Source of the DNA: a virus
Length of the DNA: 12,192 nt
Strand: one strand, 5' to 3'
UHGV virus genome: UHGV-0062900
Both the position numbers and the translations under genes were made by a program. The number at the start of each line of letters is the position of its first letter. The first letter of the stretch is position 1. Shown here piece after piece: positions 3,943 to 11,789 of this stretch. The notes beneath the pieces are model-generated. The model was not told the DNA's origin. It was given only the letters and a program-made list of their open reading frames with translations, and made no database searches.

Positions 3943-4332
3943 TCAGGCGGCTGCACCCGCCGTTTTCTCGTACTTACTGATAGTGATCTCGACCTTCCCT
4001 TCCGGGATAACCGGTCCCCACTCCACCAGCATTCTTTTCACCTGGCTGTCGTCTTCCCACACACCCGCGTGGGTCAGGGCGTCAAACAGCGCCTTGTTAT
4101 AGTTGTCCAGATCGCGGATCCGGTTATCCGGAGGAAACAACACGATCTCCACTGAAGCAGGTGCCGACGTTGGTTTTGGCAGACGACGTAACTGCTCAAC
4201 TATTGCTGCACACGCCGCGCTCTGGAATTTGCGCCCCGCCGCGCTTATCAGGCTCTTACCTGCAAACGCCCCTTTGTTGGGGTGTCGCCAGTACGTGTTC
4301 ACGCTGGGCGGGAAAGGCAGGATCAGCTTCAT
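3943..4332 (-). CDS. rusA: RusA-family Holliday junction resolvase
   Basis: 129 aa; LPFPPSVNTYWRH...RDLDNYNKALFDALTHAGVWEDDSQV carries the conserved RusA motifs (DLDN, FDAL, xDDxQ). ATGA overlap with the upstream gene stop. Confidence 0.85.
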   Translation of the reverse strand: MKLILPFPPSVNTYWRHPNKGAFAGKSLISAAGRKFQSAACAAIVEQLRRLPKPTSAPASVEIVLFPPDNRIRDLDNYNKALFDALTHAGVWEDDSQVKRMLVEWGPVIPEGKVEITISKYEKTAGAAA

Positions 4333-4655
4333 ACTTTCAGACCCCTCTCATGTAACCAGTGGGCTGCACGCAGCCTGGCGTTTTCCTCACCGGCAAGCAG
4401 TGAGCGGATAATCCCGACCGCCTCGCTGTCGTCGTCCTTGACCGCGGTATGAAGCGTTATCCCCCGGGCCACACCACGCTTTATCGTGATGACGCCTTTT
4501 TTCTCCAGTGCGCGAAGATGCTCCACCGCTGCATTCACCGAACGGTATCCCAGCATGGTTGCCACCTCCTGATTGGTTGGCGGGAAGCCACGTTCTTTCT
4601 GATAAGAAATCAGCATATCCAGCACCTGCTGCTGGCATTGAGTTAACGTCGTCAT
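4329..4655 (-). CDS. LexA N-terminal DNA-binding-domain-like protein lacking the S24 peptidase domain
   Basis: 108 aa; MTTLTQCQQQVLDMLISYQKERGFPPTNQEVATMLGYRSVNAAVEHLRALEKKGVITIKRGVARGITL aligns with the LexA winged-helix domain (MKALTARQQEVFDLI...[36 protein letters not shown]...RGIRL). There is no Ser/Lys peptidase domain. GGGAGA Shine-Dalgarno 7 nt upstream; ATGA coupling to the methyltransferase stop. Confidence 0.7.
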   Translation of the reverse strand: MTTLTQCQQQVLDMLISYQKERGFPPTNQEVATMLGYRSVNAAVEHLRALEKKGVITIKRGVARGITLHTAVKDDDSEAVGIIRSLLAGEENARLRAAHWLHERGLKV

Positions 4656-5305
4656 GCCACCATCTCCCTGACCAGTTTTTCTGCCTGCTGGCGAACCTGC
4701 GCCAGAAAGGCCTCACCACATGCCTCAAGTTCATCGCGCCCGATGTAGCTGATTGCCGGTCCCTTCCAGGTCTTGTCGAAAACAGCAATAGCACCAGCGA
4801 AGAAAGCTCCTGTCGGCACCTGCTTCTCATCCTTCGGGATAAACCAGGCAGGCAGTTCAAAACCGATACGCCCGCGAATAAAAGCAATATGATCTGCATC
4901 TTCCGGCCACCACACTTCGCTGGTGGCAGCTTTGATCAGGAAAACATAGCGCCCACCTTTATCACGCATGGCACTGGCATGCTTCATGATGTAACGCATG
5001 CCTGTGATGTATTGCCCCTCATGCTGACTGGCGCGGCTGTATGGGGGATTACCAAAGGCAGCACCTTTAAGCTCCGCAAGGCGTTCTGACCAGTCATGCG
5101 CCAGCGCGTTGTCTTCCGCCGTGTAATACGCAGCACATTTGGCGTTATCACCGTCAGTGAACAGATCCAGAACAAACGGGCCAAACAGGGTGTTAATTCC
5201 CCAGAAAATGTTGTCCGGCGTGCGCCACTGATCGCCCACTTCCTTCAGTTCATGGGCTGGTTTGTTCCGCAGTTCCACCAGCGCCTGGCAATATTTATTA
5301 CTCAT
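4652..5305 (-). CDS. Phage-type DNA N6-adenine methyltransferase (Dam-like, NPPY motif)
   Basis: W-TP ... DLFTDGD ... AFGNPPYSRA motifs are typical of the phage Dam family. Start set at ATG 5305, which overlaps the upstream stop as TAATG; the track start at 5338 is a GTG giving 228 aa. Confidence 0.75.
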   Translation of the reverse strand: MSNKYCQALVELRNKPAHELKEVGDQWRTPDNIFWGINTLFGPFVLDLFTDGDNAKCAAYYTAEDNALAHDWSERLAELKGAAFGNPPYSRASQHEGQYITGMRYIMKHASAMRDKGGRYVFLIKAATSEVWWPEDADHIAFIRGRIGFELPAWFIPKDEKQVPTGAFFAGAIAVFDKTWKGPAISYIGRDELEACGEAFLAQVRQQAEKLVREMVA

Positions 5306-5799
5306 TAAGCCCCCACGTAATTCCCTGACAGATACCACTCATCACCCGGTACAGCGCGCTTGCTGCTTTTCCGTAAACACCGCTCACGACGCGCAAGAAA
5401 ATTGTTTCGCTCTGGCTGGGAGTGGCTTTCACGGAATGCCGCCATCCACACCGTTGCAGCACGACGGTATAAGCCCCTCGACTCCAGTTCTTCCGCCTGG
5501 CGGGTCAGGCACAAAATCACCCGGGGATCGTTAGTGCCGACATAGAAATTGCGCACAGGTCTGGTTTCACGAACTGGTTGCGGTTCCGCCTCCTGCGCTC
5601 TCTCAGTCAGGCGCGGGAAATGTCTGCGTGTATCCCCTTCACAACGGTGAGCCACACGACCACTCTGACGTAACTTGCTTGCTGACTGCAGAACGCGCTG
5701 CCGTGAGTAACCTGCAAAAGCATCCGCAATGTCTCCGGAAGTACACCCCGGATGGGCTTCAATGTATTTCTGAACTTCATTCAAAAGACTCATGATCAC
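5305..5799 (-). CDS. YfdN-like prophage protein (164 aa) with PerC-like C-terminal motif
   Basis: Length equals that remembered for K-12 CPS-53 YfdN (164 aa). C-terminal LESRGLYRRAATVWMAAF resembles the PerC/Pch activator signature (from memory). The track start at 5799 is a GTG; ATG at 5793 is an alternative. Stop overlaps the methyltransferase start. Confidence 0.55.
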   Translation of the reverse strand: MIMSLLNEVQKYIEAHPGCTSGDIADAFAGYSRQRVLQSASKLRQSGRVAHRCEGDTRRHFPRLTERAQEAEPQPVRETRPVRNFYVGTNDPRVILCLTRQAEELESRGLYRRAATVWMAAFRESHSQPERNNFLARRERCLRKSSKRAVPGDEWYLSGNYVGA

Positions 5800-6614
5800 C
5801 CCCTGAATCCTGCCGGGATCTGGCTGTAGTCCACGTTGTCGTAACTGGCTTTGAAGTACGGGTCCTCGCGTCTGGCTGCAGATACCGCAGGAACTTCCCA
5901 GGATTCTTCGAAATGACGATCCGGACCAAAGAACGTGACAGCCTGTTTCACAAATTGTGTGCCGCTGTTACCCATCGCAGATACCCAGCCCGCGTAGCGT
6001 TTCACACCTTCCAGCATGGTTTCGGGGTTTACCCCCTCATTCAAACGGGCTTTCCAGGCTTTGAAGGCTGCAGATTTTGAATTGCCACCAGCACGTTTGG
6101 GATATACCAGCCATGCCTGCTCAAACTCCGGAGAGTATTCCGGTCGGTTTGAACGAACTCGCACGGACTCATCAACTGATGCACCAACAGCTATTGGTTC
6201 ATTGACTGGTTCTTTGACTGGTTCAAAAGAGTGACTGGTTCTGGGTGAATCTCCTGCACTACCCCCTGGTGCAACTCCTGCACTACCTGGTGAATTTGCT
6301 GCACCAGATAGTGAATTATTTGCACTACCCCCTAGTGAATCTCCTGCACCATCAAGATGAAGGAGATAGATATTACTTGAGTTACCTTTTTCACCTTTCC
6401 GGGTGACTTTTTTTACCAGCCCGGACTCACAAAGGGCCGCAATATGATTCATCACAGAACGTTTGCTAATCTCGCACTGGTCAGCAATATGCTGGTAGCT
6501 GGGCCAGCACTCACCCTGATCGCTGGCATTATCAGCCAGCTTGATCAGAACCAGTTTTCGCAATGGATTACCCACTCGAATTTTCATCGCTTTAACCATC
6601 AGCTCCATACTCAT
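5796..6614 (-). CDS. Replication initiator, O-like: N-terminal winged-helix/HTH domain, Gly/Ser/Ala-rich linker, C-terminal domain
   Basis: N-terminus KIRVGNPLRKLVLIKLADNASDQGECWPSYQHIADQCEISKRSVMNHIAALCESGLVKK is the HTH type common in phage replication proteins. Low-complexity linker GDSLGGSANNSLSGAANSPGSAGVAPGGSAGDSP is encoded by tandem DNA repeats. Position matches K-12 yfdO (O-like fragment). ATGA overlap with the upstream gene. Confidence 0.6.
   Translation of the reverse strand: MSMELMVKAMKIRVGNPLRKLVLIKLADNASDQGECWPSYQHIADQCEISKRSVMNHIAALCESGLVKKVTRKGEKGNSSNIYLLHLDGAGDSLGGSANNSLSGAANSPGSAGVAPGGSAGDSPRTSHSFEPVKEPVNEPIAVGASVDESVRVRSNRPEYSPEFEQAWLVYPKRAGGNSKSAAFKAWKARLNEGVNPETMLEGVKRYAGWVSAMGNSGTQFVKQAVTFFGPDRHFEESWEVPAVSAARREDPYFKASYDNVDYSQIPAGFRG
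6202..6353. repeat. Iteron-like tandem direct repeats inside the O-like gene (candidate replication origin)
   Basis: Three copies of TGACTGGTTC at 6203-6212, 6215-6224 and 6232-6241. Then about five imperfect ~21-24 bp units built on tgcact-acc(cc)-ctggtgaa at roughly 6244-6270, 6271-6293, 6294-6315, 6316-6339 and 6340-6353. Moderately AT-rich stretch follows at about 6355-6420. Confidence 0.6.
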
Positions 6615-6847
6615 GCTGCACCTCCGAGATGCTTCATGTTTTTTCCGGAGCGAAAGGCTATAAGCGGCATACTGACGCGGTAATTACGGCCAAGCGGTTC
6701 ACAAATCACCTTCTGGCATTCACGGTCAACCAGGCTAACACGTAGAACATGCCCTGCAGGTGTGGTGTACCACTGCCCAACTGTAGGAATTGATATTTTT
6801 TTACGCTGAAGTAAACGGTGAATATTGAGGATCAACGGATTAAGCAT
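6611..6847 (-). CDS. Hypothetical small protein (78 aa)
   Basis: ORF within the coupled operon; its ATG lies 2 nt upstream of the stop of the preceding gene, and its stop overlaps the O-like start (ATGA). No recognisable motif. Confidence 0.4.
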   Translation of the reverse strand: MLNPLILNIHRLLQRKKISIPTVGQWYTTPAGHVLRVSLVDRECQKVICEPLGRNYRVSMPLIAFRSGKNMKHLGGAA

Positions 6848-7676
6848 GACGATGCCCTCCGCTGATATTCAGGAGACGGTGAATATGAAGATTAGCCTTA
6901 TCCGCCAAACGAATACGTTCAGCCTGCAAGTTAAGAAGGGTTTCTACCAGAAGTTGATGCGCCTGCGGATCTGAAAGAGTTACCTTGCGCAGAGCACGTA
7001 GTGCTGTTGTTACATAACTGAGTTTATGTAAGTCTTCATCATTCAGACGAGTGAGGGCTGGGACAGTAGCCATGATGGCAGCCTCCTTGATCGGTGAAAT
7101 ACTTCCACCACCGGAAACGCCAATTTCGCTGGTGGTGAACTGAACGGGGTTGGCGTAACCGGTGATCAAGGAAACCGGCGCATCTTTCGATGCCCCCGCC
7201 CAGCCCACCATAACTTTGATGTGAGCAAATGCGGACGATAAAAAAGACGCTGGCGCGTCATATATCGCCTTGATCAATTCCAGGACGCCAATCCCGGCAC
7301 CCGCTTTATAAGGTGCCTGAACAGTGTAACGTCCCGGAATGGCAGAATCAATGTGCTGGTGGTCCTTCACACTCAATAAAATCACGCCTGAATTTCCACA
7401 AAGGACTAAAGCACTCATGCGGGTAGTCTTTGCGAAGATAGATAACGCGCTGTGTTTCTGGCTCCCAACGAATAACATGAACATAAAGTCCTCTTCCGTC
7501 ACGAAACCAGCGGTTAAGTTCCTGCACAACTCGCCCCCCACAGTCAGGTAAAGTTCTCTGTGGTTACTTACAGCCAGGTGATTTGGTAATCTGCATTCAT
7601 GCCGTAACAACAGGTGTTCAGCGACGCTGACCACCAGCTGTTGCGACAAACGGTTATTTGCCGTTAAACTGTTCAT
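6840..7676 (-). CDS. Hypothetical protein (278 aa) in the replication module; function unknown
   Basis: Long ORF, ATGA-coupled to the upstream gene. No Walker A motif, so not an obvious DnaC/P-type helicase loader. No family recognised. Confidence 0.5.
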   Translation of the reverse strand: MNSLTANNRLSQQLVVSVAEHLLLRHECRLPNHLAVSNHRELYLTVGGELCRNLTAGFVTEEDFMFMLFVGSQKHSALSIFAKTTRMSALVLCGNSGVILLSVKDHQHIDSAIPGRYTVQAPYKAGAGIGVLELIKAIYDAPASFLSSAFAHIKVMVGWAGASKDAPVSLITGYANPVQFTTSEIGVSGGGSISPIKEAAIMATVPALTRLNDEDLHKLSYVTTALRALRKVTLSDPQAHQLLVETLLNLQAERIRLADKANLHIHRLLNISGGHRHA

Positions 7677-8558: not shown

Positions 8559-9233
8559 ATGAAAACAATCCATGACATCCGGCGGTCTAACGCCAGAAAA
8601 CTGAGAGATGGTGTTGGCGGAAATTCATCCTTTGCCACCATGATTGATCGCGAGCCAACCCAAACCAGCAGGTTTATGGGGGATGGCGCTACTAAAAATA
8701 TCGGTGACAGCATGGCACGGCACATCGAAAAATGTTTCGACCTGCCTGTCGGATGGCTTGATCAAGAACACCAGACAACGAACATCACAAAAAAACCTGA
8801 TGTTTCAATCACTAACAAACAAATAACGTTAGTCCCTGTCATATCATGGGTACAGGCCGGAGCATGGAAAGAAGTTGGCTATTCTGAGGTTGATTTGAGC
8901 ACAGCAGAAACGTATCCCTGCCCTGTACCCTGTGGCGAAATGACTTATATCTTGCGGGTGATTGGTGATTCAATGATTGATGAGTACCGCCCTGGAGACA
9001 TGATTTTTGTTGATCCCGAAGTCCCTGCCTGCCACGGTGACGACGTTATTGCATTGATGCACGATACAGGCGAAACCACCTTCAAGCGATTGATAGAAGA
9101 TGGAACACAGCGTTATCTCAAAGCATTAAACCCAAACTGGCCTGAGCCTTACATTAAGATTAACGGTAATTGCTCTATAATTGGTACAGTGATTTTCTCG
9201 GGAAAACCAAGAAGATACACAATAAAGGCCTAA
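8559..9233 (+). CDS. CI-type prophage repressor with C-terminal S24 (LexA-like) autopeptidase domain
   Basis: 224 aa. C-terminal VIGDSMIDEY...GDMIFVDPE...TFKRL carries the Ser (GDSM) and Lys (FKRL) catalytic dyad; a candidate Ala-Gly cleavage site lies in VQAGAW. N-terminal HTH-like region. Divergent from cro. Confidence 0.85.
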   Translation: MKTIHDIRRSNARKLRDGVGGNSSFATMIDREPTQTSRFMGDGATKNIGDSMARHIEKCFDLPVGWLDQEHQTTNITKKPDVSITNKQITLVPVISWVQAGAWKEVGYSEVDLSTAETYPCPVPCGEMTYILRVIGDSMIDEYRPGDMIFVDPEVPACHGDDVIALMHDTGETTFKRLIEDGTQRYLKALNPNWPEPYIKINGNCSIIGTVIFSGKPRRYTIKA

Positions 9234-9305: not shown

Positions 9306-9872
9306 TAAAAGAAACATAACACAGGCAAGATTAAAACAAAATTTGGTTGTAACACGGCGTATGGCACATGCGTCGTTAGCGGTCTGGTGACGTTAAAGGG
9401 GACAATCCACTCCTTGCTCGAGCAAACAAACCAGGTAGCCGGAATGTGCAAGTCAATGATGATGCTGATAAGACGCCTAACCAGCGTGGCGATTCGGTTT
9501 GACGCCTGGGAAGAGACCAGGGTGCAACGATGAGGGCATTTATGGAGCCGCGACAAAGTGTGGTGCCGTAACTGGCTAAGTGCTCTCAGCGTTGTGGTAA
9601 TCCGCGAAATGGCGCGGCGGTAAGTATGGCGGGGTTACTCTTTCCCCGTTGAGGACACCGGATTGTCAGGTTGACCAGCCACTGCTTTGGCGGTACCAGT
9701 TTGTACCCTTGCTTCCGGCTGGTACCGCTCTTTTTACAAAACAGAGAAGAGCATCACCGGACGACGGGCTCATAACCCAATCCATCCGGGCGGCAGTCAC
9801 CGCAGGTGTTCTTCTCTGTTTTGTGGAGAAACCAACCGACCTTGCAGGGTCGATATGATGAGGAGCAGCAAA
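9306..9872 (+). other. Long ORF-poor structured leader of the early-left operon (candidate cis-acting RNA element or sRNA)
   Basis: About 570 nt between the PL-like promoter and the first well-supported start (9873), with no plus-strand ORF over ~30 codons having a Shine-Dalgarno. Long-range inverted repeat: 9731-9755 pairs with 9805-9829 (perfect 14-bp core acaaaacagagaag / cttctctgttttgt), enclosing the hairpin gcgg-cagtca-ccgc (9790-9803). Additional hairpin ccgcg-aaatgg-cgcgg at 9602-9617. Confidence 0.35.
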
Positions 9873-10235
9873 ATGGCTAGCGAACGCAGTACTGATGTGC
9901 AGGCATTTATCGGGGAGCTGGACGGCGGCGTATTTGAAACCAAAATCGGCGCTGTTCTCAGTGAAGTCGCTTCCGGTGTGATGAACACGAAAACCAAAGG
10001 TAAGGTCTCGCTCAACCTGGAAATCGAACCGTTTGATGAGAACCGTGTGAAAATCAAACACAAACTCTCATATGTTCGCCCGACTAACCGCGGGAAAATT
10101 TCTGAAGAAGACACCACCGAAACACCGATGTATGTCAATCGCGGTGGTCGCCTGACTATTCTGCAGGAAGACCAGGGACAATTACTGACTCTTGCCGGTG
10201 AACCTGACGGAAAACTTCGCGCAGCAGGTCATTAA
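9873..10235 (+). CDS. YfdP-like early protein (120 aa)
   Basis: ATG 9873 is preceded by AGGAG at 9861-9865 with a 7-nt spacer. Length 120 aa matches that remembered for K-12 CPS-53 YfdP. The track's longer ORF from 9687 is an unsupported N-terminal extension through the structured leader. Confidence 0.65.
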   Translation: MASERSTDVQAFIGELDGGVFETKIGAVLSEVASGVMNTKTKGKVSLNLEIEPFDENRVKIKHKLSYVRPTNRGKISEEDTTETPMYVNRGGRLTILQEDQGQLLTLAGEPDGKLRAAGH

Positions 10236-10300
10236 TATCGTTCTTAATTAACTGATTATTTATCTCATCACTGAATATCTTTATATAGTGAGGACTTATT

Positions 10301-11125
10301 ATGTCTCAGAACTTAGACGCAACCGCAATTAATCAAATCCATGCCCTTATTTCTGCTCAGGGTGTTAATGAAATTATCAGTAAGATTGGTGCCGATGCTG
10401 TGGCATTGCCTGAGAATTTCCGCATTCATGATCTGGAAAAATTTAATTTAAATCGCTTCCGTTTCCGTGGTGCGCTTTCCACTGCCAGCATCGATGACTT
10501 TACCCGTTATTCTAAAGATCTTGCAGATGAAGGCACCCGCTGCTTTATCGATGCTGATAATATGCGTGCCGTCAGTGTGCTTAACCTGGGTACTATTGAT
10601 GAACCAGGTCACGCAGATAACACCGCCACACTCAAACTGAAAAAGACAGCACCGTTCTCTGCTCTGTTGTCTGTTAACGGCGAGCGTAACTCCCAGAAGT
10701 CACTAGCAGAATGGATTGAAGACTGGGCCGACTATCTTGTGGGCTTTGATGCTAATGGTGACGCTATTCAGGCAACAAAAGCGGCTGCGGCTGTCCGTAA
10801 AATCACGATTGAAGCAAACCAGACCGCTGATTTTGAAGATAATGACTTCAGCGGCAAACGCTCCCTGATGGAGTCTGTCGAAGCGAAGACCAAAGACATT
10901 ATGCCAGTGGCATTTGAATTTAAATGCGTTCCGTTTGAAGGTCTGAAAGAACGTCCGTTTAAATTACGCCTCAGTATTATCACTGGCGATCGTCCTGTAC
11001 TGGTTCTGCGCATTATTCAGCTGGAGGCGGTGCAGGAAGAAATGGCTAACGAATTTCGTGATCTGCTTGTTGAGAAATTCAAGGACAGCAAAGTAGAAAC
11101 CTTTATTGGTACTTTCATCGCCTGA
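10301..11125 (+). CDS. yfdQ: YfdQ-like protein (DUF2303 family), 274 aa
   Basis: 274-aa ORF with GAGGA Shine-Dalgarno 5 nt upstream. Length and gene order (before the HD-domain gene) match K-12 CPS-53 yfdQ, from memory. Confidence 0.75.
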
Positions 11126-11137
11126 TTTCATTACTGC

Positions 11138-11159
11138 AAATGCCCCTGCGGGGGCATTT
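11138..11159 (+). terminator. Intercistronic hairpin between the yfdQ-like and yfdR-like genes (attenuator or stabiliser; weak terminator)
   Basis: aaatgcccc-tgcg-ggggcattt: 9-bp perfect inverted repeat with 4-nt loop. No strong downstream T-run (followed by atggaaacg). Confidence 0.3.
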
Positions 11160-11252
11160 ATGGAAACGTAATTTACTCAATAATCGCCGGATGGTGAGGG
11201 ATTTTTTTTACCAGAATTCAGCGCGGTGCAGCGCATATACGTGGAGAACAAA

Positions 11253-11789
11253 ATGTCATTTATTAAAACTTTTTCCGGGAAGCATTTTTATTATGACAGG
11301 ATAAATAAAGACGACATCGATATTAACGATATCGCGGTTTCCCTTTCAAATATCTGTCGCTTTGCCGGACATCTTTCACATTTCTACAGCGTCGCCCAAC
11401 ATGCGGTTCTTTGCAGCCAGCTGGTGCCGCAGGAATTTGCTTTTGAAGCGTTAATGCATGATGCAACAGAAGCGTATTGCCAGGACATTCCCGCACCACT
11501 GAAACGCCTTCTTCCTGACTATAAACAAATGGAAGAAAAAATAGACGCCGTAATCCGTGAGAAATACGGGTTACCCCCAGTTATGAGTACGCCCGTGAAA
11601 TATGCCGATCTCATCATGCTGGCAACCGAACGCCGCGATCTCGGGCTTGATGATGGCTCTTTCTGGCCTGTACTGGAAGGTATCCCGGCAACAGAGATGT
11701 TCAACGTGATTCCACTGGCACCGGGCCATGCCTACGGGATGTTTATGGAACGCTTTAACGAGTTATCGGAGTTACGCAAATGCGCATGA
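11253..11789 (+). CDS. yfdR: HD-domain phosphohydrolase, YfdR-like 5'-deoxynucleotidase (178 aa)
   Basis: Start at ATG 11253 (MSFIKTFSGKHFYYD...), with GGAGA 5 nt upstream. HD motif in HFYSVAQHAV...MHDATEA. Length 178 aa matches K-12 YfdR. The track start at 11226 is rejected. Confidence 0.8.
   Translation: MSFIKTFSGKHFYYDRINKDDIDINDIAVSLSNICRFAGHLSHFYSVAQHAVLCSQLVPQEFAFEALMHDATEAYCQDIPAPLKRLLPDYKQMEEKIDAVIREKYGLPPVMSTPVKYADLIMLATERRDLGLDDGSFWPVLEGIPATEMFNVIPLAPGHAYGMFMERFNELSELRKCA

Follow-up and report, generated by a model that had tools for sequence, protein, structure and literature searches.

The initiator gene and its repeats

The stretch analyzed here, 12,192 nucleotides (nt) of the UHGV virus genome UHGV-0062900 (the window), contains a replication initiator gene that carries an array of repeats, a probable origin of replication, within its own coding sequence. 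The gene occupies positions 5796..6614 of the minus strand, the strand being a correction to the earlier note on this DNA. Its open reading frame (ORF) translates into 272 amino acids (aa) with a winged-helix N-domain, a disordered linker and a helical C-domain. In Pfam the protein matches HTH_36 at aa 17-67 (E 1.8e-11, 44.1 bits), and in PHROG it matches family 270, 'replication initiation protein' (E 6.9e-88). Between this gene and the 'replication protein' genes of mEp460, SfV (orf39), cdtI, the Stx2c phages and Stx2a_WGPS2 the identity is 98-99%; for the last of these (AP012537), the Eru6 reference, it is 98.8%.

The N-terminal winged-helix DNA-binding domain (aa 1-88; coding region 6351..6614, minus strand) was delimited with an AlphaFold model and the family alignment. 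The model places helices at residues 3-11, 17-28, 40-47 and 51-64 and a hairpin at 67-85, with predicted local distance difference test (pLDDT) values of 72-86, and a Foldseek search with it retrieved generic winged-helix proteins, including DnaD-N and the Orc1/Cdc6 winged helix, at E about 0.01-0.02. The first ~50 residues are nearly invariant in an alignment of 59 clusters of relatives. The helix at aa 51-64 (KRSVMNHIAALCES; 6423..6464, minus) is the predicted recognition helix; it is the part of the N-domain whose sequence changes along with the iteron arms. The linker appears as a low-confidence segment at aa 91-157 (pLDDT about 30) and is predicted to be disordered. Because the model is poor overall (pLDDT 56), no conclusion on the C-domain was drawn from the fold search.

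This C-terminal domain (coding region 5796..6190, minus), an exchangeable module, is presumed to recruit a helicase or a helicase loader. Its PHROG matches are named 'DnaD-like helicase loader' and 'primosomal protein', and no Pfam or NCBIfam family matched it; the Pfam score for DnaD_N was 24.3 bits, the family cut-off being 27 bits. A sequence search against solved structures returned nothing significant for the initiator.

The repeats encode residues ~88-141 of the 272, between the winged helix and the helical C-domain. Exactly three copies of TGACTGGTTC lie on the plus strand, at 6203-6212, 6215-6224 and 6232-6241; with one mismatch allowed, the window holds four matches against 0.63 expected, a number reached in 0/200 shuffles. 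On the minus strand these positions are direct repeats of GAACCAGTCA, with a degenerate copy at 6191-6200. Tandem Repeats Finder reported a 12-base-pair (bp) array at 6195-6225 and a 21-24-bp array of 4.6 copies at 6245-6349, and no comparable array elsewhere in the 12-kb window, including the region between cI and Q. The five larger units share, on the gene strand, a 15-bp dyad as their core, GTGMA-N5-TKCAC. This pattern has five matches in the window against 0.09 expected, none of 200 shuffles reaching five, and the five units are spaced by 24/21/21/24 bp.

Taken in gene order on the minus strand, the pattern matches are iteron 1 (GTGCAGGAGATTCAC, 6335..6349), iteron 2 (GTGCAAATAATTCAC, 6311..6325), iteron 3 (GTGCAGCAAATTCAC, 6290..6304), iteron 4 (GTGCAGGAGTTGCAC, 6269..6283), which is a perfect 5-N5-5 palindrome, and iteron 5 (again GTGCAGGAGATTCAC, 6245..6259). 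Their positions in the family, counted from the conserved block that follows them, are -107, -83, -62, -41 and -17. The dinucleotide CC separates iteron 5 from this block, AGAACCAGTCACTCTTTTGAACCAGTCAAAGAACCAGTCAATGAACCAATAG (6191..6242, minus), which starts two bases past the iteron and is built as AGAACCAGTCA-CTCTTTT-GAACCAGTCA-AA-GAACCAGTCA-AT-GAACCAATAG. Read along the gene, the parts follow one another as winged helix, five dyads, CC, conserved block and C-domain.

The earlier note had described three exact copies of a short repeat and about five imperfect units of 21-24 bp, lying in the linker between an N-terminal helix-turn-helix and the C-terminal domain. All of this is borne out, by the copies at 6203, 6215 and 6232, by the tandem-repeat and dyad searches over 6245-6349, and by Pfam and AlphaFold. 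The interval it had given, 6202-6353, does hold the repeats, but the region reaches further, to 6191.

A moderately AT-rich stretch (6354..6400, no strand assigned; GC content 0.34) adjoins the iterons on their N-terminal side and encodes the conserved wing, KGEKGNSSNIYLLHL. Its 40-bp duplex stability gives a z of 2.0, at the 94th percentile of the window. The adjacent AT-rich stretch of the earlier note is real, but it lies on the side opposite to the AT-rich region of lambda and P22. Within the stretch, antisense to the initiator gene (6391-6406, plus strand), TCACCTTTCCGGGTGA and the CTTTTTTT after it form a terminator-like hairpin; a scan of 5700-6900 found one such hairpin against 0.9 expected, which is chance level.

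DNA signals rather than codon repetition

Repeats in a low-complexity linker of Gly, Ser, Ala and Pro could be a by-product of the protein sequence, with selection or slippage acting on the peptide and not on the DNA. All five window units are indeed in frame at their 24/21/21/24-bp spacing and encode xGGSAGDS-like heptads and octads, in a linker predicted to be disordered, and copy number drifts among relatives as slippage would give. The reading frames argue otherwise. The first GAACCAGTCA copy lies 17 bp from the second and is for this reason in a different frame, so that it reads R-T-S-H and the later copies E-P-V. Across relatives, iteron spacings of 21, 22, 23 and 24 bp were counted in 47, 16, 11 and 47 cases, and because of this neighboring copies of one 15-mer are often in different frames; in L083, for example, identical copies of GTGCAGGAGATTCAC are translated both as SAGDS and as VQEIH. 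Moreover, every iteron type is a 5-N5-5 inverted repeat, a symmetry that coding does not demand.

The information content follows the dyad as well. Conservation among 120 type-A iterons is highest at the third codon positions of the arms, at ~2 bits, the outer three arm bases having been used for selecting these iterons, and the first and second codon positions of the spacer carry 0.1-0.9 bits. The conserved block, for its part, is frozen at its synonymous sites and is retained by some relatives in another frame. From the varying frames, the dyad symmetry and the dyad-following information content we conclude that the repeats act at the level of DNA and are not codon repetition. The frame and synonymous-site results refute the by-product explanation for practical purposes. 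The earlier note had raised the same doubt against itself, that the repeats might prove to be only codon-level low complexity, and this is excluded by the frames, the dyads and the information content.

The signals could also be read in RNA, with the dyads forming mRNA hairpins and the block being an RNA motif for translation, stability or frameshifting. Compensatory differences between dyad types can be taken as stem covariation, and synonymous-site conservation of the block would be expected from an RNA function too. However, arm position 4 (C or A) is independent between half-sites, pair-compatible in 56 of 125 cases against 59 expected, and the commonest pairs are the mismatches C-U and A-G. 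This independence is compatible with a protein dimer that reads degenerate half-sites, and it speaks against a stem in RNA or in a cruciform. The repeat region has an unremarkable RNA fold (z -0.65), Rfam gave a sub-threshold microRNA match only and nothing above noise, and the 21-24-bp phasing fits the DNA helix. A role at the RNA level is very unlikely.

Conserved iteron architecture in relatives

By blastn, only ~40 bp around the GAACCAGTCA copies are conserved in Vibrio and Stenotrophomonas phages, with 90-97% identity. The layout there is the same: Vibrio phage D67 has three GTGAY-N5-GTCAC dyads, and Stenotrophomonas phage BUCT709 has four dyads of the CTATGCC-N-GCATAG type. Phage cdtI carries eight iterons of the window's type. 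A scan for an exact 28-mer of the block in IMG/VR and in one genome per species gave at least 120 viral contigs and at least 45 species genomes, and these loci were collapsed to 59 non-redundant clusters with distinct upstream sequences. A dyad is present at -17 from the block in 49 of the 59 clusters; the corresponding numbers are 47 for -41, 42 for -62/-63, 30 for -83/-86 and 13 for -107, against a background of about 1.5 per position. The five window iterons occupy exactly these family positions. The dyad sequences differ among the clusters while the positions stay, and the iteron architecture is conserved across the family. The arm types found are GTGCA/TGCAC, GTGAC/GTCAC, GTGTA/TACAC, GGGCA/TGCCC, TGCCR/YGGCA and the GTAGGC types.

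Copy number was counted in the results of an N-domain alignment search, which gave only close relatives of the window and was therefore used for the copy-number and diversity counts and not as an unbiased sample. The number of iterons in near-identical genes is 1, 2, 5, 7, 8 or 9, and that of exact GAACCAGTCA units at the 12-bp spacing ranges from 2 to 5. Prophage alleles with one or two iterons (P0028, P0037, P0042) are widespread, P0028 being found on 64 contigs. In P0040 the last iteron and the block are deleted, and a copy in Erwinia tracheiphila (L170, ~4155-4578, minus-oriented) is frameshifted and truncated at the block. The few-iteron and block-deleted alleles are either minimal origins or decayed prophages.

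Covariation of the predicted recognition helix with the iteron arms

Residues 50-58, which follow 'QCE' and fall in the helix at 51-64, track the arm type across the 59 clusters. S[KR]RSV[MI]NHI is found with GTGMA/TKCAC arms, SKRSVMRHI with GTGAC/GTCAC, SERSVQNHI with GTGCA/TGCAC, and [GS]RSTVKVHI with GGGCA/TGCCC. Similarly, DRSTVR[KR]HI accompanies GTAGGC-type arms, S[KR][ST]AVRxHI accompanies TGCCR/YGGCA, and SRKTAIGHI accompanies GTGTA/TACAC. The Mantel rho between helix and arm was 0.21, a value reached in 0/500 permutations. The iteron arms covary with the predicted recognition helix, and the natural helix/iteron pairs are a ready-made recognition code for a winged-helix initiator.

The conserved block and module exchange

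The species genomes that match the 28-mer are all from Gammaproteobacteria and include Pseudomonas, Shewanella, Haemophilus, Photobacterium, Xenorhabdus, Photorhabdus, Proteus, Providencia, Erwinia, Pantoea and others. When contigs were scanned with an any-codon pattern for R-T-S-H-S-[F/L]-E-P-V-x-E-P, 120 were found; 117 of them have the canonical bases, and the other three have one synonymous change each. The bases are kept despite hosts that range from AT-rich Vibrio to GC-rich Stenotrophomonas and despite flanks that cannot be aligned. The conserved block is frozen as DNA.

Relatives were also collected with no selection on the block, by an N-domain-only search of 1.84 billion representatives that gave 7511 relatives, and the block was read in the 121 full-length proteins among the best 150 of these. 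The frame-0 block peptide, with few substitutions at most, is present in 95 of the 121; at least four read the same block DNA in the +1 frame (ESVTLLNQSMNQS), and most of the others have (H)PEPVxEPVxEP (12-bp-only) versions. The intact 288-aa gene of L260, which is followed by a DnaB gene, carries six dyads followed by CACCC-GAATCAGTCACTCTTTTGAATCAGTCAATGAACCAGTCAA. One base is missing from its block, which shifts it to the +1 frame; the DNA is thus preserved under a peptide that is wholly different.

Other block variants differ mostly in the 7-bp spacer (ZF40, PseuP_222) or in one repeat copy (24B/Min27, phiV039C). GAACCTATCA takes the place of the first block repeat in the 24B/Min27 group (24B 'O', L128:2400-2900; Min27 'O', L257; P0235). 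The frame after the block differs within this group, the 24B O protein having 258 aa and the Min27 O protein 222 aa, with P0235 frame-shifted; these are either real frameshift variants or differences of sequencing or annotation.

In a modular fashion like that of lambda, the N-domain, the iterons and the block travel together, and crossover to different C-domains occurs at the block. Matches in blastn end at query 395-413, which is the block joint, and P0059 and P0072 have foreign N-domain/iteron cassettes on the window's C-domain. The 'O' genes of Stx1a phages have a C-domain with 79.7% nt identity to that of the window, joined to an unrelated N-domain and unrelated repeats, with no GAACCAGTCA block. 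For example, the 'phage replication protein O' of the Stx1a phage Stx1_14040 (L127:2750-3310) has an N-domain beginning MRPSDLLLDFGHPVAYYPGL on a window-like C-domain. Its linker repeats are of the GGGAAACCCGTTTTCGGGAAA / GGGAAA..CCGCGGA type, and the linker is probably another in-gene origin, of a third kind.

Across 56 clusters the gene after the initiator is lambda-P-like in 24, DnaC/IstB-like in 18 and DnaB-like in 4, and some C-domains go with no such partner. The members followed by a DnaB helicase share the palindrome CCCCCTnACCCCCnAAnGGGGGA with P22 gene 18 (L003:1960-2000, L130:1465-1490; also L014, L031 and L173). It lies directly after the conserved block in these members and after the AT-rich block in P22, and may mark the start of a helicase-specific C-domain module or be a further origin element.

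These junctions allow another explanation of the block, in which it has no role in replication and is kept as a recombination 'linker' for module swaps or for a needed peptide motif. The mosaic breakpoints at query 395-413 and in the P0059 and P0072 cassettes are as expected from the former, and the peptide RTSHSFEPV is common, as expected from the latter. The frame change in L260, however, loses the peptide and keeps the DNA. To keep ~30 bp nearly identical across several gammaproteobacterial orders, purifying selection must be strong, and evolvability by itself is unlikely to supply it. In addition, a conserved block shared by lambda and P22 has the same position, beside different iterons. 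We regard a block with no part in replication as rather doubtful.

A probable origin inside the initiator gene

Comparison of the DNA with its relatives, lambda and P22 supports the inference of the earlier note that this is a prophage origin. It is quite likely that 6191-6349 is the replication origin of a lambdoid prophage, placed inside the linker-coding part of its own initiator gene. Dyad-symmetric iterons imply initiator dimers, and these would bind the five GTGMA-N5-TKCAC dyads through the recognition helix of the winged helix. Since the iterons are spaced by about two helical turns, the bound dimers would stand on one face of the DNA, in a complex like the lambda 'O-some'. The duplex would open in a flank, most likely in the GAACCAGTCA block at 6191-6242, which is favored because it has the same position as the conserved AT-rich block of lambda and P22. 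The exchangeable C-domain would then bring in the helicase, presumably the host DnaB with the host loader; host functions would be needed because the phage encodes neither helicase nor loader between cI and Q.

The dyads might instead bind the initiator for autoregulation or copy control, as a transcription roadblock or as titration sites, with the origin elsewhere. The operators of iteron plasmids are inverted repeats bound by dimers of Rep, a textbook case known for RepA, RepE and pi, and the helix/arm covariation shows only cognate binding, not initiation. The sites begin more than 260 bp inside the coding region, however, with no promoter-like site near them, and a fixed junction to a block conserved at the DNA level is hard to explain for an operator. 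There is, moreover, no other repeat array between cI and Q that could serve as the origin. Finally, the arrangement is that of lambda, P22 and phage L, in which in-gene iterons are the accepted or proposed origin (PMC8022706, PMC7466680). An operator function with the origin elsewhere is unlikely.

Several observations weigh against the origin as we propose it. The conserved block is not AT-rich (GC about 0.42), and its duplex is only modestly unstable in the window (z 0.7-0.9); the least stable flank in the window is on the other side, at 6350-6400 (z 2.0). No DnaA box was found anywhere in the window and no sigma-70 promoter-like site in 5700-6900, so that nothing near the repeats points to an input from host factors. 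Among close relatives the arms are barely less variable than the spacers (8/50 vs 13/55 sites), and prophage copies with one or two iterons or with no block exist (P0042, P0028, P0040). The iterons adjoin the region coding for the N-domain, and plain linkage could explain part of the covariation; the C-domain, however, at an equally short distance on the DNA, is freely exchanged. The literature searched gave no binding or origin-activity experiment for any member of the family.

With respect to opening, both flanks of the iteron array are only modestly unstable. Across the family the block has a mean stability z of 1.33, and no higher value occurs within 300 bp to either side of it. The AT-rich side has a family mean z of about 1.0 at -130..-100, is above 1 in 58% of the clusters, and is GC-rich at this position in the one Pseudomonas-phage version that was read. 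The block at 6191-6242 is a candidate opening or loading site as well as a module joint, and 6354-6400 is an alternative candidate unwinding site.

The block could be read by the invariant N-terminal 50 residues of the initiator, by a host factor present throughout the Gammaproteobacteria, or through contacts with single-stranded DNA. Tentatively, we suggest that the GAACCAGTCA block may be a sequence-specific, non-AT-rich element for origin opening or helicase loading, read by the invariant ~50 residues or by a conserved gammaproteobacterial host factor. Thousands of temperate phages that otherwise exchange iterons and C-domains freely would have it in common, almost to the letter, and it would also be the universal joint for swapping origin specificity.

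Genomic setting of the initiator gene

The order of the genes in the window is that of the early-right operon of a lambdoid prophage. A cI-like repressor gene lies on the plus strand at 8559-9233. On the minus strand, cro-like, cII (CP76), an Ash-family protein and a small ORF precede the initiator gene, and genes for a PerC-like protein, Dam, a protein with a LexA DNA-binding domain, RusA, KilA-N, DUF968 and Q follow it. The gene directly downstream (5305..5793, minus) starts 2 nt past the initiator stop codon and encodes 162 aa with the C-terminus of a PerC-like transcriptional activator. No helicase or loader gene is found between cI and Q in the window, and the PerC-like gene is neither. 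In relatives the slot of the PerC-like gene holds a helicase loader; cdtI lacks the PerC-like gene and has Dam directly after the initiator.

The protein between Dam and RusA (108 aa; 4329-4655, minus), in a nin-like region, has the LexA DNA-binding domain only (Pfam E 2.9e-19) and no peptidase domain, and could be a LexA mimic or competitor. Genes on the plus strand flank the early operon at 306-1705 and 9687-11789, and these flanking regions are the least stable and most AT-rich DNA of the window. Beyond Q lie DUF6731 and an unannotated ORF of 150 aa; beyond cI lie an unannotated ORF of 182 aa, DUF2303 and a YfbR-like protein. The PADLOC defense models had no match among the unannotated genes of the window.

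Novelty and significance

None of 137 phage records that hold the block annotates an origin there, and the NCBI name of the protein is only 'helix-turn-helix domain-containing protein'. A literature search for the motif returned only unrelated primer matches. No description of iterons or of an origin was found for SfV, ST64B, mEp460, the Eru phages or HTH_36 initiators in a search that did not extend to older subscription literature. That an origin can lie inside a gene is already established in lambda, P22 and 933W/P27, and phage L has been proposed as a further case (PMC7466680, PMC8022706). The origin call itself would be unsurprising to a specialist; less expected are the 24-21-21-24 scaffold, the series of helices and half-sites, and a block that is independent of frame and not AT-rich.

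This type of initiator is very common, with 5428 homologues at E <= 1e-5, of which one 90% cluster has 2852 members, and is present in Stx2a and Stx2c phages, cdt phages and serotype-converting phages. Effective production of Shiga toxin is thought to require replication of the phage (PMC7466680). A located origin would be a target for mini-replicons and for incompatibility and interference tests, and the 28-mer is a simple genomic marker for annotating prophage origins. The frozen, non-AT-rich block poses the question of how the duplex opens and who reads the block.

Comparison with known replication systems

The replication units Eru6 and Eru5 of Stx phages were defined by gene content, with the product described only as an HTH_36 protein. 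The same literature states that there is no knowledge of the proteins taking part in Eru phage replication, and the papers on the Eru classification make no mention of iterons or an origin (PMC8951638). The Eru6 unit contains the same gene as the window initiator, and some homologues are annotated as a DnaD-like 'primosomal protein I'.

Iteron plasmids (RK2 TrfA, F RepE, pPS10 RepA, R6K pi) likewise combine a winged-helix initiator with a repeat array. In these plasmids the duplex opens at adjacent short direct repeats, the repeated 13-mers of the unwinding element, and in some of them the initiator contacts the unwinding element as single-stranded DNA. A plasmid Rep protein, however, contains two winged-helix domains and binds as a monomer to direct repeats, whereas the window initiator has one winged helix and its sites are dyads. 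Plasmid origins are intergenic and the window repeats are in-gene; no sequence relationship was found, and the initiator had no Rep_3-type match in Pfam.

P22 is closer in arrangement. Its annotated origin lies inside gene 18, with four phage-specific repeats followed by ACACAAAAGACAATATACAAAAGACAATAAA, and a repeat region in gene 18 of phage L has been proposed as an origin on the same reasoning (PMC8022706). In BUCT709 and L260 the initiator gene is followed by a DnaB-type helicase gene, as in P22, and CCCCCTnACCCCCnAAnGGGGGA comes after the block. P22 differs from the window in having an AT-rich block of the lambda type, beginning ACACAAAAGACA, after its iterons, and a BLASTP comparison of P22 gp18 with the initiator detected no similarity (E 5.1). 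At the P22 junction of the last iteron and the AT-rich block we noted GAATCAGTCAA (L130:1405-1420), which is identical to the L260 variant GAATCAGTCA; it was treated as a possible coincidence because it overlaps a degenerate P22 iteron.

The family follows the logic of lambda and P22 with an initiator of another fold-family and a different shared block. The initiator has no Phage_rep_O match in Pfam at E <= 0.01, so the 'O-like' initiator of the earlier note, although it seems to work like lambda O, is an HTH_36 protein and not a sequence homologue. The window iterons are 15-bp 5-N5-5 dyads of unrelated sequence, and the window phage has no P-like loader. Lambda has an AT-rich tract of ~40 bp, whereas the window has the GAACCAGTCA direct repeat with a GC content of about 0.42; a strongly AT-rich region of ~40 bp directly downstream of the last iteron is absent at 6191-6242, and the blocks of lambda and P22 are visibly far more AT-rich.

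In its anatomy the probable origin is of the lambda kind. Both have the repeats inside the initiator gene, in the linker between a DNA-binding N-domain and a partner-binding C-domain. The iterons of both are dyad-symmetric; in lambda and its Stx-phage relatives four to six of them lie at spacings of 20-24 bp, those of lambda (four annotated, inside O) being spaced by 20/24/23 bp. A lambda-P homologue follows the initiator gene in 24 of 56 relatives. Lambda has four iterons, and the Stx phages 933W and P27 have six, with 13 extra residues in O (PMC7466680); iteron number likewise varies between relatives of the window phage and changes the length of the protein. Finally, a conserved block stands directly downstream of the last iteron, in lambda ACACAAAAGACACTATTACAAAAGAAAAAAG, and lambda and P22 have different iterons followed by a shared block, ACACAAAAGACAnTAT(n)ACAAAAGA, inside O and gene 18.

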